Assembly (NCBI GenBank): GCA_038748515.1
Contig: JBCDIW010000002.1
Span: forward strand, 382,296 to 422,295
Origin: Pseudomonadota bacterium
GTDB lineage: Bacteria > Pseudomonadota > Gammaproteobacteria > Pseudomonadales > Halieaceae
Direction: 5' to 3'
DNA: 40,000 nucleotides
The notes under the pieces are model-generated. The model made no database searches. It worked only from the letters and a program-made list of their open reading frames with translations, and was not told where the DNA came from. Within the stretch, counting starts at the first letter, position 1, and each line of letters starts with the position of its first letter. Both the position numbers and the translations under genes were made by a program. Of this stretch, positions 8,480-15,404 are shown piece after piece.

Positions 8480-8554
8480 CGGGAGTTTGCCTGTGCGAGA
8501 AAAGATAGGGAGAAATGTATTAACGTGCTTTGTCTCGTTAATTAGCTGTTATGT
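8480..8554 (+). other. Putative attI recombination site (core GTTATGT at 8548-8554); left boundary approximate
   Basis: This is the first GTTRRRY core, between intI and the first cassette ORF (ATG at 8564), in an AT-rich spacer. A second GTTAATT lies at 8536-8542. Confidence 0.45.
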
Positions 8555-8561
8555 GTCACAG
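8546..8561. promoter_or_regulatory. Weak LexA-like palindrome CTGTTATGTGTCACAG overlapping the attI core
   Basis: It matches the CTGT-N8-ACAG skeleton, but the spacer (TATGTGTC) and flanks deviate from the consensus. About one chance match is expected in 40 kb. Confidence 0.25.
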
Positions 8562-8563
8562 CG

Positions 8564-8887
8564 ATGAAGCTACTCTTCGTTTGTTCGGAAAATCGCTTGC
8601 GAAGCCCAACAGCAGAAGAGGTCTTCTCTTCCTACCCAGGCGTAGAGGCCATTGGCTGCGGCACTAACGCTGATGCAGAAACACCTCTTTCCGGTGATCT
8701 GATTGAGTGGGCTGACGTTGTCCTTGTCATGGAGAAAACTCATCGCAGCAAGGTGGCGAAGAAGTATCGAGACCTCCTCAAGACGAAGAGGCTCGTGTGT
8801 CTGGATATACCTGACAATTATGCCCGCATGCAGCCAGAACTAGTGCATCTGTTAGAAGCTAAGGTTCCGAAGTATGTGCGTCTGTAG
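8564..8887 (+). CDS. Cassette 1: low-molecular-weight phosphotyrosine phosphatase-like protein
   Basis: 107 aa. The N-terminal LFVCSENRLRS fits the CX5R(S/T) P-loop of LMW-PTP/ArsC-like phosphatases. Confidence 0.65.
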   Translation: MKLLFVCSENRLRSPTAEEVFSSYPGVEAIGCGTNADAETPLSGDLIEWADVVLVMEKTHRSKVAKKYRDLLKTKRLVCLDIPDNYARMQPELVHLLEAKVPKYVRL

Positions 8888-8894
8888 CGGACAC

Positions 8895-8970
8895 ATAACA
8901 AGTCAAGGCTGCAAGGGCGCTTCGCGCCGGGACGTCCGCTGCGCGGCCGCCCCAGCTTGAAGCGTTAGGC
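8895..8970 (+). repeat. attC 1 (type A)
   Basis: ATAACAAGTCAAGGCTGCAAGGGCGCTTCGCGCCGGGACGTCCGCTGCGCGGCCGCCCCAGCTTGAAGCGTTAGGC. R'' ATAAC pairs with R' GTTAG, and L''/L' pair with an extrahelical G. Confidence 0.9.
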
Positions 8971-8990
8971 ATCACCTTAGTCGTCTAAGT

Positions 8991-9335
8991 ATGTGGATTT
9001 ATCTGAAAGCTTTTACCTTCTGTCTCTGTGTGGCGATATTCACCAGCGCTATGCTTGCTGGGTCTGTCTCATTGCTGAAGCCTGAGCAAGCAAAACTTGC
9101 TGAGATCCCCTTGTCGCTTGCTTTCCTATTGCCTATGAATGCAGCTTGTGCGTTCTTGGTCGCTCGAAACCTTGTGGTTGAATCACCTCGCTCGCCGTTG
9201 ATGTTGTCGCTTGGCTTGGCTGTTGCATACCTTCTTCTTCTGCCAATCCAAAGCATCGGGAGTGTGGTTTCTTATACGGGGGTGATTGTGGCTATCGTTC
9301 TGGGGGCTCGGCCTTGGCGAGGCGCCGATGCCTAA
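8991..9335 (+). CDS. Cassette 2: small integral membrane protein, unknown function
   Basis: 114 aa with 3-4 hydrophobic helices. It fills the cassette between attC1 and attC2. Confidence 0.55.
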   Translation: MWIYLKAFTFCLCVAIFTSAMLAGSVSLLKPEQAKLAEIPLSLAFLLPMNAACAFLVARNLVVESPRSPLMLSLGLAVAYLLLLPIQSIGSVVSYTGVIVAIVLGARPWRGADA

Positions 9336-9407
9336 CAAGTCAAGGCTGCAGGGGCGCTTCGCGCCGGGACGTCCGCTACGCGGCCGCCCCAGCTTGAAGC
9401 GTTAGGT
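9332..9407 (+). repeat. attC 2 (type A)
   Basis: CTAACAAGTCAAGGCTGCAGGGGCGC...CAGCTTGAAGCGTTAGGT, near-identical to attC1. Confidence 0.9.
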
Positions 9408-9852
9408 GTCCCAGGTGAGTCCGATGACTCTAGGCGTTCTTGCTGTCCCTGTAGTTTTACTGGGGGCGATTTTTCTCGGCCCGGTGGTCTATAAGGCTTT
9501 CGACCCAGTTTGGGATTTGGTTATGAACAAATACTTATCGAACGTGTGGGGCGATTGGTTCACATACTCAATGCTAATTGCAATCGGGTTCGCAAAAGTA
9601 ATCTCCTTGGCCGGCCTGTCCACGTTATTGCCGGCAATCGTTCTGGCGTACATGCAGCTTGACGGAAGAAGTGCCGCGGTTAGTAGCGTCGTTACAGGCT
9701 CCATAGTTGCGTCAACCGCCTATCTAAGCGGAGTGTGGTCCTTCTACGTTCCGTTTCACTCTTCGCTATGGTTTGGTTTCGCTCTGATTACTTGTTTAGT
9801 TGCTCTGGCTATGTGGGTTGAAGCTAGGAGTTTTCGTTGGCTGCTGAAATAA
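9406..9852 (+). CDS. Cassette 3: integral membrane protein, unknown function (GTG start inside the attC2 core)
   Basis: 148 aa with about 4 hydrophobic helices. It fills the cassette. Confidence 0.55.
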   Translation: MSQVSPMTLGVLAVPVVLLGAIFLGPVVYKAFDPVWDLVMNKYLSNVWGDWFTYSMLIAIGFAKVISLAGLSTLLPAIVLAYMQLDGRSAAVSSVVTGSIVASTAYLSGVWSFYVPFHSSLWFGFALITCLVALAMWVEARSFRWLLK

Positions 9853-9855
9853 CAC

Positions 9856-13462: not shown

Positions 13463-13466
13463 CAAG

Positions 13467-14663
13467 CGACTGTGATCCCAGTTCAACCCAGTAGCTCTAC
13501 TCTTTAAGCCATGTGCCACTCCTTCTGGTCCCTGACCATGGCGTTCAATATGCCCATCATCTTTCGCATGCACACGGTGATGGCAACTTTCTTGTGCTTA
13601 CCCTGATCGATCAGCTTGTTGTAGAACGCCTTCATCACAGGATTGTGCTGAATAGCGCTGAGCATGGCCATGTAGAGCACGGTGCGGATGGGAGCCCGTC
13701 CCCCGCGAATGCGCCGCTTCCCTCGCAGTGATCCACTGTCCCGGTTGAACGGCGCTAGCCCTGTTAACGCGGCGATCTGCTTGTGGCTGAGCGACCCGAG
13801 TTCGGGAAGCTCGCCGAGCAGTGTGTAGGCCACACCGTCACCGATCCCAGGGACAGAGATCAACAACGCGTGAGTTTTCTGCCATTGCTCTACGCGGGCT
13901 ACGGCCTTGTCGAGCTTCTGCTCGACCCAGGCAATCTCCTTCTCTAAGAACTTGATGGCCCTGCGATGTGAAGCCACAAGGCTTGGAGTGGCCTTGTGCT
14001 GTCGATTCAGTTCCTGGGTACGCTGCTGCATGAGCTGACGCTTTCTCGCCAGTAAGTCTCTGACGTTCTGAACGTTTTCATCCGGGATCGGCCTGGGCCG
14101 GATAGAGAGCGCCTTTCCGAACCGAGCGATGAGAAAGGCATCCAATTTGTCGGTTTTAGCAAGCACACCTTCGGCTTTGGCGAACTGACGTACCTGCATG
14201 GGCTGAACGAGGCAGACTGGTAGACCGTGGCTGGCGCAGGCGGCGACCAGGGCTCTCTCATAGCCGCCAGTGGCCTCGACAATGATCCGTTGAGGTTTGA
14301 GACGCACGAGGCGACTGACCCACTCCTGAATCTCCGGTAGTGAATTTGCGATGATGAGGTGTTCTTCTTGTTCGAGGATGGCGATGTCGAGGACGTCCTT
14401 GCCCACATCGATGCCGATATTCAGTTCGGTTTTTCTGCTGTTAGCGGTCGTATTTGTACGCATAACTCACCCTTGCTACATTCGGGCTCGAGGCCCTTTC
14501 GACTGTTCGAGTTAAACCACGGAATCGGCGGGGAGCTCTTGCTTGTTAACGGGCTCTAGAAATCGGCGCCAGTCAGGTTTCGAGCTTCCCCACCGAGAAC
14601 CTGCGGCTACAGGTTCGGGCCTCACTTTAATCGCTCACGAGGTATCGAAAGAGTGATATTCCG
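13467..14663 (-). mobile_element. IS110-family insertion sequence inserted in attC 10 (ends ambiguous by up to 5 bp because ACAAG occurs at both junctions)
   Basis: About 1.2 kb of foreign sequence interrupts an otherwise intact attC. It has a single DEDD-type transposase ORF, no obvious terminal inverted repeats, a 205-bp non-coding end upstream of the transposase and a 37-bp end downstream. Confidence 0.8.
13504..14463 (-). CDS. IS110-family (DEDD) transposase
   Basis: 319 aa. N-terminal [14 protein letters not shown] ... [11 protein letters not shown] ... [14 protein letters not shown], and C-terminal [21 protein letters not shown] ... [20 protein letters not shown], are hallmark IS110/IS1111 motifs. 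Confidence 0.9.
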
Positions 14664-14761
14664 ATCATACAAGTCAAGGCTGCAGGGGCGCTTCGCGCCG
14701 GGACGTCCGCTACGCTGCCGCCCAGCTTGACGCGATAGATGTGCTTGTCCGAGGTTGCGAT

Positions 14762-14962
14762 ATGCCAAAAAGTCCTGACAAGCAGAATCCTGAGAATGCT
14801 TCCTCATCAGGTGCTGCGATCGCTATAGGTGTAGGTATCGGAGTAGCGTTCGGCTTGCCGTTTGGGTTGGCAATAGAGAATGTTGGTGTCGGCGTGGGCG
14901 TTGGCACGGGTATCGGTGTTGCGCTTGGCATTGCTATTGGTGCGGCTAGAGGGAAGTCCTAG
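14762..14962 (+). CDS. Cassette 11: glycine-zipper small membrane protein
   Basis: 66 aa from the ATG at 14762, with GAGG 8 nt upstream. The GAAIAIGVGIGVAFGLPFGLAIENVGVGVGVGTGIGVALGIAIGAA repeats form a GxxxG zipper. Confidence 0.5.
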   Translation: MPKSPDKQNPENASSSGAAIAIGVGIGVAFGLPFGLAIENVGVGVGVGTGIGVALGIAIGAARGKS

Positions 14963-14985
14963 CGTGTCTTGTCTAGATCGCCCAC

Positions 14986-15070
14986 CTAACGAGTTAAGGC
15001 TTCAAGGTCGCTTTGTGCCGGGACGTCAAAACCGTTACGCCGTTTCGCCGCCCGTGCTTGAAGCCTTGCC
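14986..15070 (+). repeat. attC 11 (diverged type A, degenerate R')
   Basis: CTAACGAGTTAAGGCTTCAAGGTCGCTTTGTGCCGGGACGTCAAAACCGTTACGCCGTTTCGCCGCCCGTGCTTGAAGCCTTGCCT. Confidence 0.65.
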
Positions 15071-15118
15071 TGCCTTAAGGAGCAGGGATGCACCGGAACC
15101 GTTTTAGAGCTCTGCAAC

Positions 15119-15292
15119 ATGCGAATCATCGGTCCAGATTCGGCTATGGCCGTTACGAAATGGAGGCGCCTCGGCCGGGGCGACGAAGTCGTCGAGCGCC
15201 TGGGAACGACATACACGCTAGTGAAAGTAGGGGCTGAGTGGAAAGTAGCCGTCGTGATAGTACACGATGAGGATGTAGTTCTTTTCGAATAA
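15119..15292 (+). pseudogene. Cassette 12: possible remnant of an NTF2-like/DUF4440-type gene (57-aa ORF)
   Basis: MRIIGPDSAMAVTKWRRLGRGDEVVERLGTTYTLVKVGAEWKVAVVIVHDEDVVLFE resembles only the C-terminal strands of an NTF2-like fold. It is below the ORF-track cutoff. A competing Arg-rich 49-aa ORF with a strong AAGGAG site starts at 15088. Confidence 0.25.
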
Positions 15293-15332
15293 CGGCAAGG
15301 TGGTTATCGGTGCGAAACAATTGCTCCGCATC

Positions 15333-15404
15333 GTACGTGGCCAGGCAAGCCGCTTCGCGGAACATCAAACCGACAGTTTGCCGCCCATGCTGGTAGCGTT
15401 ATGT
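15333..15404 (+). repeat. attC 12 (type B, degenerate R''), last recognisable attC
   Basis: ...GTGGCCAGGCAAGCCGCTTCGCGGAACATCAAACCGACAGTTTGCCGCCCATGCTGGTAGCGTTATGT. Confidence 0.6.

Follow-up and report, generated by a model that had tools for sequence, protein, structure and literature searches.

What kind of repeat array lies beside a tyrosine recombinase gene of this Halieaceae bacterium, and do the differing repeats within it betray more than one source? The stretch analyzed here, the window, comprises 40 kb of contig C2 (C2:382296-422295) of a 5.8 Mb genome with 61.8% GC. A preliminary description of the window had proposed a chromosomal integron array of at least 12 cassettes with more than one family of attC recombination sites, and had taken this mixture as a sign of cassette genesis or recruitment from several sources. 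According to our analysis, the region is very probably a complete chromosomal integron whose attC sites follow a single design used throughout the family and whose cassettes belong to a pool exchanged across genera. The integron array itself is thus well supported, as the integron integrase IntI, the boundary at attI, covariance models, a rule that links neighboring cassettes and the cassette turnover relative to a congener all agree. That mixed attC types point to multiple sources is, in contrast, not established.

All 12 attC sites that had been recognized by eye are real and lie where they had been placed. With coordinates that include the R'' 7-mer at one end and the R' 7-mer at the other, each in full, attC1 to attC4 occupy positions 8893-8970, 9330-9407, 9854-9940 and 10230-10317, attC5 to attC8 positions 10758-10835, 11305-11394, 11845-11925 and 12279-12368, and attC9 to attC12 positions 12953-13030, 14664-14740 (with an R'' stub at 13457-13467), 14984-15071 and 15326-15404. 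They are imperfect palindromes of 77-90 nt, spaced by 331-662 bp, or by 1710 bp across an insertion sequence (IS). Rfam gave no match in the window at its gathering threshold and holds no attC family; consequently, covariance models were built for this analysis. Model R1 was derived from the bottom strands of the window's 12 sites with a hand-specified structure. In other Halieaceae it detected 122 further sites within arrays next to intI homologs, all of them on the intI-coding strand, and model R2 was built from those 122 sites of other genomes only. Searching the whole window with filters off, R2 returned exactly the 12 sites and no thirteenth match at E<=1; their E-values span 5e-21 to 9e-6, and every one lies on the minus strand. 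R1 matched the same 12. The R2 scores were 77-87 bits for attC1-9, 51.9 for attC10, 47.0 for attC11 and 30.8 for attC12; scored individually, attC1, attC2, attC3 and attC5 reached 83.7, 84.6, 86.1 and 87.4 bits and attC6, attC7 and attC8 82.8, 80.0 and 83.9 bits. A search by ungapped complementarity of the arms found nothing, because the bulge in the sites shifts the register. R2 also matches arrays upstream of distant intI genes (IntI 47-59% identical; Cellvibrionaceae, Pseudomonadales, Desulfuromonadales) with 25-60 bits, and 66 of these 67 matches fall on the intI-coding strand. Thus R2 captures general attC features plus a family signature.

The gene divergent from the cassettes, intI (7264-8274, minus strand), encodes an integron integrase of 336 aa, the only one in the genome. 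The protein scores 435.7 bits against TIGR02249 (cut-off 265), covers profile positions 1-314 of 315, and matches VchIntIA (PDB 2A3V, E 7e-94) along its entire length, with few gaps over residues 26-334. It keeps the catalytic residues (RKHRHY) and the motifs GLRL, GKGxKxR, HxxRHSFAT, LGH and IYTHV as well as, by comparison with 2A3V, the IntI-specific segment containing W219. The W157 position is occupied by R, as is the equivalent position of IntI1 (R168; PMC2095811). The closest relatives, with 65-77% identity, come from Congregibacter, Halioglobus, Haliea and Pseudohalioglobus, which places the host in the Halieaceae (OM60/NOR5 clade). Reading the sequence, we noticed a palindrome resembling a LexA box (TACTGTACATATATACAGTA, 8265-8284) that overlaps the intI start codon. 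Of the 19 Halieaceae loci that were checked (L001-L019, L031), 18 have a CTG-N10-CAG box at the same spot upstream of their intI. The attI region follows at 8285-8554 on the plus strand. Its core GTTATGT (8548-8554) is the exact complement of the attC1 R'' box, and the crossover falls between G8548 and T8549. The array had earlier been thought to begin at 8480, whereas this crossover is its true start.

Both boundaries are fixed by comparison with a genome of the same genus, G055, whose IntI and DnaE2 are 95 and 98% identical to those encoded here. Starting in dnaE2, G055 aligns at 93% over 4.4 kb; the alignment ends at position 8551, within the attI core's GTTA, after which the sequences diverge completely. 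Homology resumes at 15984, the distal limit of the variable array: contig C39 of G055 matches 15984-19266 with 88% identity and continues to align up to about 31.5 kb, with 77-91% identity to beyond imuB. On the array side of 15984, G055 carries attC sites and unrelated cassettes, so between the two boundaries both genomes hold attC arrays with different cargo. The whole genome of G055 yields at least 47 attC matches, yet homologs of no more than three cassettes, namely 4, 7 and 9 (78, 93 and 90% identity), all on other contigs: that of cassette 4 on contig C23 and that of cassette 7 in a two-attC island on contig C27. Two of the three shared cassettes are small attC islands in G055. The G055 attC sites nearest the conserved block score lowest. 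Since homology is interrupted between the attI core and 15984, and since only 3 of the 12 cassettes are held in common, the array comprises 8549-15983 and has been turned over since the two lineages split. Its GC content of 54.7% (cassette bodies 50-58%) is below that of the genome and of the dnaE2-intI segment (63.0%), which bears out the lower GC that had been noticed without computation.

The predicted attC hairpins are supported by covariation. Among the 122 attC sites of relatives, 89% of the pair cells are standard pairs, compared to 71% after shuffling and 33-42% if the partners are slid by 1-3 columns, and compensatory double changes occur at 8/8 L-box pairs and at 9/9 pairs in the two inner stems. 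If only the window is considered, both partners vary in 9 pairs, and the five that belong to the L box make up the differences between the types told apart in the preliminary description. The bottom-strand R box reads TAAC/GTTA. A G follows the bottom-strand AAC in 118 of 122 sites; of the 120 distinct sequences, 111 show it in a G.T pair, in place of which the top strand would give an A.C mismatch. Next comes a spacer of 3x3 unpaired bases (GCY opposite CTT) and an L box of 8 bp, in which a single unpaired base of the R''-L'' arm separates the first five pairs from the last three. The terminal stem is short in 78-nt sites and 4-5 pairs longer in sites of 87-90 nt, type A sites carry a side hairpin (GGCGC-GAA-GCGCC), and the centre GGGACGTC...CGCTRCGCGG...GCCGCCC is shared by all sites, as had been described. 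When the bottom strands were folded, the six intact sites attC1, 3, 4, 6, 7 and 8 gave z-scores of -1.7 to -5.3, while attC10 (-0.75) and attC12 (+0.09) folded no better than shuffled sequences. In type A sites (e.g., 8893-8970, 9854-9940, 10230-10317) the CGCTTC of the R'/L' side can also pair with GAAGCG of the side-hairpin loop, in a fold whose stability equals or exceeds that of the canonical R/L hairpin. Such a competing fold could modulate attC folding. The extrahelical base is C in 102/122 Halieaceae sites (84%) and G in 14/122 (11%). In canonical attC sites, an extrahelical G is followed after 6-8 nt by a T (PMC2727003). However, C is plausibly functional, since a G>C change in the Vibrio cholerae repeat (VCR) is reported to lower recombination only 1.3-fold (PMC2727003).

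The boundaries between cassettes follow a rule of their own. Recombination takes place at G|TT, and the last six R' bases travel with the next cassette. Each R'' is therefore expected to complement the R' of the site upstream and not that of its own site. For cassettes 1-9, attI included, the reverse complement of R'' equals the upstream R' in 9 of 9 cases, which only 4 of 100,000 permutations equaled, while R'' is the exact complement of its own R' in just 2 of 9. Cassettes 10, 11 and 12 follow the rule at 6, 5 and 3 of 7 positions.

These last three cassettes differ in further ways. The attC10 reported earlier is real, with one correction. It is split into the R'' stub (13457-13467) and a remainder at 14674-14740 with a degenerate R' (GATAGAT) by an element of about 1206 bp (13468-14673, minus strand), inserted between R'' box and L'' box. 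The element belongs to the IS110 family (NF033542, 220 bits; Pfam DEDD_Tnp_IS110 and Transposase_20), with the transposase at 13504-14463. Its ends are ambiguous by a 5-nt repeat, ACAAG, and it is single-copy in the genome. A search of the plasmid collection gave no close relative, with transposase identities of 45% at most. With about 210 nt of non-coding DNA upstream of the transposase gene and about 36 nt downstream, the layout is of the IS110 type according to the criterion of PMC11187229. The longer non-coding end (14464-14673) holds GTTAACAAGC, which matches the attC R''/spacer sequence TAACAAG(C) at the insertion point. As a bridge/seek-RNA guide in this end, we found only an 8-nt match (TAACAAGC), of which about 0.5 are expected by chance; this is a lead at most, and no guide is claimed. 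Beyond attC12, a possible thirteenth attC survives as a relic at 15583-15650 on the plus strand (GAGGACGTC...GCCGCAGCTTGAA), matching the 3' half of a type A attC at 70-73% and scoring below threshold in R1 and R2. The distal end is decaying, with three degenerate attC sites, one of them split by the IS, plus the relic. Because attC10 is split and the R boxes of attC10-12 are mutated, cassettes 10-12 are presumably no longer singly excisable.

This leads to the question of the attC families. Pairwise comparison of the inner parts separates five subtypes: A-short (attC1, 2, 5, 9 and 10; 92-100% identity within), A-long (attC3, 4 and 11; 80-92%), B (attC6 and 8; 86-87%), and C and E, represented by attC7 and attC12 alone. 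Identity between subtypes is mostly 61-78%, and 73-88% between A-short and A-long. The L boxes read TCAAG-G-CTG (L'') and CAG-CTTGA (L') in subtype A, GCCAG-G-CAGC and GCTG-CTGGC in B, and GTGTG-G-CTGG and CCAG-CACAC in C; altogether, the subtypes differ by compensatory L-box changes and paired indels in stem length. The seven to eight type A sites counted previously agree with seven copies of the type A arm at <=3 mismatches (0 expected by chance) and attC11 as a diverged eighth, and attC7, already credited with other arms, is set apart as subtype C. The type B arm has two copies at <=3 mismatches, attC6 and attC8, and not three as proposed: attC12 has just the L'' core GCCAGGCA in common with type B and belongs to a separate subtype of 75-79 nt (E), intact copies of which exist in the congener G055 and in L002. 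Hence, the claim of more than one attC family is correct only at the level of subtypes. All five are variants of one family-wide attC design, and a single model gives each of the nine intact sites 77-87 bits.

Comparison with the attC sites of other genomes revealed copies of every subtype elsewhere, at 81-100% identity. A-short recurs at 100% in G055 and in a cluster of attC sites lacking integrases (CALIN) on contig C4 of the own genome, and at 99% in L003; A-long recurs at 97% in L002 (Congregibacter brevis), C at 82% in G055 and E at 81% in L002. The best copy of B, in L031 (IntI 66% identical), is 88-89% identical, as compared to 86-87% between the two B sites of the array. The roughly 50 attC sites of G055 comprise the same five subtypes plus further L-box variants on the B backbone, and other Halieaceae arrays are at least as mixed in attC type. 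Moreover, subtypes do not stay with their cassettes. Cassette 4 has A-long sites here and is flanked by A-short sites in G055, the difference being a matching pair of indels in the central stem, and a RelE/XRE cassette has three different attC variants in three genera. Because orthologous cassettes differ in subtype and subtypes recur in other genera, the subtype is a poor and unstable marker of cassette source. Equal or closer copies in other genera, together with the same subtypes in G055, suggest that the array draws on a family-wide cassette pool common to several genera.

The alternative that survives best holds that subtypes do mark source lineages, with A native to the genus and B, C and E imported from other Halieaceae. 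This would fit the position of the nearest relative of type B in so distant a genome as L031, the variation of the subtype mix between genomes (an example is the TGTGGCTG L box, with 9 copies in G055 and none here), and the homologs of cassettes 7 and 9 in other genera. Nevertheless, we regard it as rather unlikely, as all five subtypes are also present in the congener, a single orthologous cassette carries different subtypes in different genomes, and the GC content of the cassettes (50-58%) does not sort by subtype. In addition, sites of 70-90 nt give no polarity of transfer. Genesis or recruitment from several sources is thus not established by subtypes that are shared throughout the family and unstable on orthologous cassettes.

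A more far-reaching idea starts from the observation that a few discrete attC backbones are 97-100% identical on cassettes without relation to each other, in species with 7-12% difference in their core DNA. One might speculate that Halieaceae possess a distinct attC grammar, namely one extrahelical C behind the fifth L-box pair, a symmetric 3x3 spacer closed by a G.T pair that only the bottom strand can form, and a conserved, branched terminal stem, and that the near-identical backbones stem from an active process, either templated addition of attC sites during cassette genesis or gene conversion. We consider this doubtful; ordinary selection plus exchange is the alternative for the near-identical backbones. 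A group II intron (IIC-attC) was considered as genesis agent, and no maturase domain was found in the genome.

It is very unlikely that the subtypes diverged in place from one ancestral attC, without exchange, in an integron that is now an inactive relic. One design with a conserved centre in all sites and the visible decay of the distal ones would be expected in that case, and the signs of activity are indirect. However, in-place divergence sits badly with identities between subtypes inside the array (mostly 61-78%) that are far below the 81-100% to copies in other genomes, with a content almost wholly unlike that of the congener despite flanks that are 88-93% identical, with an intact IntI, and with attC sites identical to attC1 at a second locus on contig C4. 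Finally, the notion that the repeats are intergenic palindromes of the repetitive extragenic palindrome (REP) or miniature inverted-repeat transposable element (MITE) kind, beside a tyrosine recombinase by coincidence, can practically be dismissed: GC-rich imperfect palindromes of 77-90 nt between genes, with scattered copies on other contigs, might suggest it, but it is contradicted by their single orientation beside a bona fide IntI, the offset R''/R' complementarity in 9/9 cases, the break of congener homology exactly at GTTA, and the arrays found by the same model on the expected strand upstream of intI genes of other orders.

The integron probably works as follows. Once LexA repression is lifted, IntI would probably be produced and would bind attC hairpins folded from the bottom strand, which is the intI-coding strand here. 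Recombination between two attC sites would excise cassettes, and the circles would be reinserted at attI, between G8548 and T8549, as first in the array. The presently mobile part would consist of cassettes 1-9 (8549-13024) with their intact attC sites, and cassettes 10-12 plus the relic (13025-15983) would form a decaying tail. Two toxin-antitoxin (TA) cassettes would probably stabilize the array, and the attC subtypes are common to several genera that draw on one cassette pool. As indirect signs of IntI-dependent recombination we count the cassette turnover relative to G055 and the CALINs with identical attC sites. The data show the sites, their structure by covariation, the two limits of the array, its turnover and the occurrence of the same subtypes in other genomes; we infer SOS induction, present-day IntI activity, expression from the cassette promoter Pc and stabilization by the TA cassettes.

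Several points argue against this interpretation. Recombination at the locus is supported indirectly, and expression of the cassettes is presumed. The single extrahelical base, C, departs from the canonical G plus T (PMC2727003), and the recognition of these attC sites by IntI is consequently an assumption. Thermodynamic folding alone is a weak test with modest z-scores, and the minimum-energy fold of several type A sites is the competing pairing of GCTTC with GAAGC of the side hairpin. A simple scan of positions 8000-9000 revealed no sigma-70 consensus promoter that could serve as Pc. Furthermore, R1 and the source alignment of R2 were seeded from the window's own sites; as the 122 sites behind R2 were collected with R1, R2 is only partly independent.

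The cargo comprises 12 short cassettes, all coding on the plus strand and each ending in an attC. Cassette 1 (8549-8964, attC1, A-short) encodes a 107-aa protein (8564-8887) resembling low-molecular-weight phosphatases, a weak match (Pfam LMWPc, E 1e-5) limited to the N-terminal CX5R segment. Cassette 2 (8965-9401, attC2, A-short) encodes 114 aa with about four hydrophobic segments (8991-9335), cassette 3 (9402-9934, attC3, A-long) a 148-aa membrane protein (9406-9852). Cassette 4 (9935-10311, attC4, A-long) lacks a convincing open reading frame (ORF), as its single long frame begins in attC3 and runs through attC4. Compared with its G055 counterpart (L118:612-1059, 78%), the 5' ~50 nt and the 3' ~85 nt are near-invariant on either side of a variable middle, and the cassette may specify a non-coding RNA. 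Cassette 5 (10312-10829, attC5, A-short) encodes a soluble, functionally uncharacterized protein of 141 aa (10331-10756) that matched no family in profile searches. Cassette 6 (10830-11388, attC6, B) holds two small genes (10854-11087, with an in-frame TAG, and 11089-11310). The gene pair of cassette 7 (11389-11919, attC7, C), at 11420-11656 and 11653-11850 (DUF2283, E 2.5e-16), is probably a TA system. In two other Halieaceae genomes, homologs of this pair (60-78% aa identity) separate intI from dnaE2 and are coded on the opposite strand (L091:1517-1944 in G044, and L005:4207-4630); R1 detected no attC in L091 and none at this place in L005. Cassette 8 (11920-12362, attC8, B) encodes a 120-aa membrane protein (11922-12284).

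Cassette 9 (12363-13024, attC9, A-short) combines a RelE/YafQ-like toxin (12414-12698) with an XRE-HTH antitoxin (12698-12958), both recognized by Pfam. Its homologs in L019 (77-84% aa), L010 (65-71% aa) and on contig C10 of G055 (90% nt) are each followed by an attC. We considered whether type B attC sites are tied to the TA cassette that follows them and rejected this, as the G055 orthologs are preceded by A-long and TGTGGCTG-type sites. Cassette 10 (13025-14734, attC10 split by the IS) encodes a 132-aa membrane protein (13064-13462), cassette 11 (14735-15065; attC11 diverged A-long, R' CTTGCCT) a 73-aa Gly-rich membrane peptide (14741-14962), and cassette 12 (15066-15398; attC12 E, R'' degenerate) a 57-aa ORF (15119-15292). 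Overall, proteins of five cassettes (2, 3, 8, 10 and 11) have predicted membrane or hydrophobic segments and two cassettes (7 and 9) carry TA pairs, in line with the mostly uncharacterized small membrane and cytoplasmic proteins noted before. PADLOC found no defense-system match among 10 cassette proteins.

Further cassettes are scattered through the genome as CALINs, at C4:197820-198353, C13:84356-89896, C37:24988-25481 and C18:36519-37063 (L103-L106). The one on C4 consists of two cassettes with attC sites 97-100% identical to attC1, and its left junction TAGCTGTTAAC resembles the attI core TAGCTGTTATG.

The integron occupies the gap between imuB (29262-30701, minus strand, Pfam IMS) and dnaE2, which encodes an error-prone polymerase (4120-7242, minus strand; NF004225, 1387 bits) and follows intI on the same strand after 21 nt. 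Among the 19 closest loci, 15 likewise have intI directly upstream of dnaE2. The imuB-dnaE2 gap measures between 14 bp and about 57 kb in different members of the family and contains attC arrays in several genera, in some genomes after loss of intI. The integron thus keeps a fixed chromosomal position across the taxon, as expected of vertically inherited, sedentary chromosomal integrons. In G050 (L096:1217-1489) only intI fragments are left directly upstream of dnaE2, with attC sites beside them, while in G039 (L100:8973-13780) an attC array adjoins dnaE2 and intI is gone. On these grounds, the integrase was lost in place in some lineages.

Between 15404 and imuB (29.2 kb), neither R1 nor R2 found an attC with filters off, and inspection of inverted repeats and intergenic regions gave nothing convincing. 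A continuation of the array past 15404 to imuB was therefore rejected: the block from 15984 is not part of the mobile array, as it is free of attC sites and syntenic with G055 at 77-91% up to about 31.5 kb. Genes of this block (15984-29261) recur in the imuB-dnaE2 gap of other genera (L083, L084, L092, L095, L097, L099, L102), in varying combinations and orders and always oriented opposite to imuB; they include a lipocalin, the ORF at 28272-28862, DUF1232, DUF3224, a racemase, GNAT and the ORF at 25893. Possibly they are ancient fossil cassettes, and their recurrence fits with, yet falls short of proving, such fixed cassettes. A short tandem repeat (GTGCCCAACCTCA, about 4 copies, 25606-25660) directly follows a cupin gene.

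Our literature search returned no integron study on OM60/NOR5, an abundant coastal marine family. The locus adds a well-delimited integron of ordinary mechanism from this group, while the general understanding of integrons is unchanged. With both boundaries fixed by the congener, it offers a clean natural system for cassette turnover and for attC decay with distance from attI, and it also suits the study of compensatory evolution in attC hairpins. The subtype differences between orthologous cassettes call for caution in attC-based provenance methods (e.g., PMC8352920), the extrahelical C is a simple, testable variant of the strand-selection rule, and the linkage to SOS mutasome genes is unusual.

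Compared to canonical attC sites (Bouvier et al., 2009, PMC2727003; Nivina et al., 2016, PMC5027507), those described here share the RYYYAAC...GTTRRRY ends, the G after the bottom-strand AAC, a variable and sometimes branched terminal structure, and strands that differ in their unpaired features. In contrast, their extrahelical base is mostly a C, placed behind the first 5 bp in the L box, a second bulge with a T is not evident, and the spacer is a symmetric 3x3. The element within attC10 resembles the attC-associated IS1111 group (ISKpn4, ISPst6; Tetu and Holmes, 2008; Post and Hall, 2009; cited in PMC11187229) in that an IS with a DEDD transposase sits in the R''-L'' arm of an attC. However, the known attC-targeting elements are of the IS1111 type, with a long non-coding region downstream of the transposase gene (PMC11187229), whereas this region lies upstream here and the layout is not that of IS1111. 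The element is also single-copy, and attC targeting can therefore not be read from it.

As a whole, the locus has its closest counterparts among sedentary gammaproteobacterial integrons, such as the superintegron of Vibrio cholerae with its VCR sites and the integrons of Xanthomonas and Shewanella. Like these, it combines a chromosomal intI with divergent, co-oriented small cassettes of mostly unknown function, lineage-specific similar attC sites, TA cassettes and a LexA box at intI, and its GC content is below that of the genome, its content varies between close relatives and its position is fixed within the taxon. Sedentary integrons are often recognized by large arrays (often >20 highly similar attC sites), and the 12 cassettes with attC identities of 61-100% fall below that size, although array size is a convention and not a mechanism. 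While V. cholerae has more than 100 cassettes and one repeat of about 120 nt, the attC sites here measure 77-90 nt and form five subtypes. Two further features set the locus apart from these known systems: a single extrahelical C in place of G plus T, and the location in the imuB-dnaE2 gap, where intI lies directly upstream of dnaE2.

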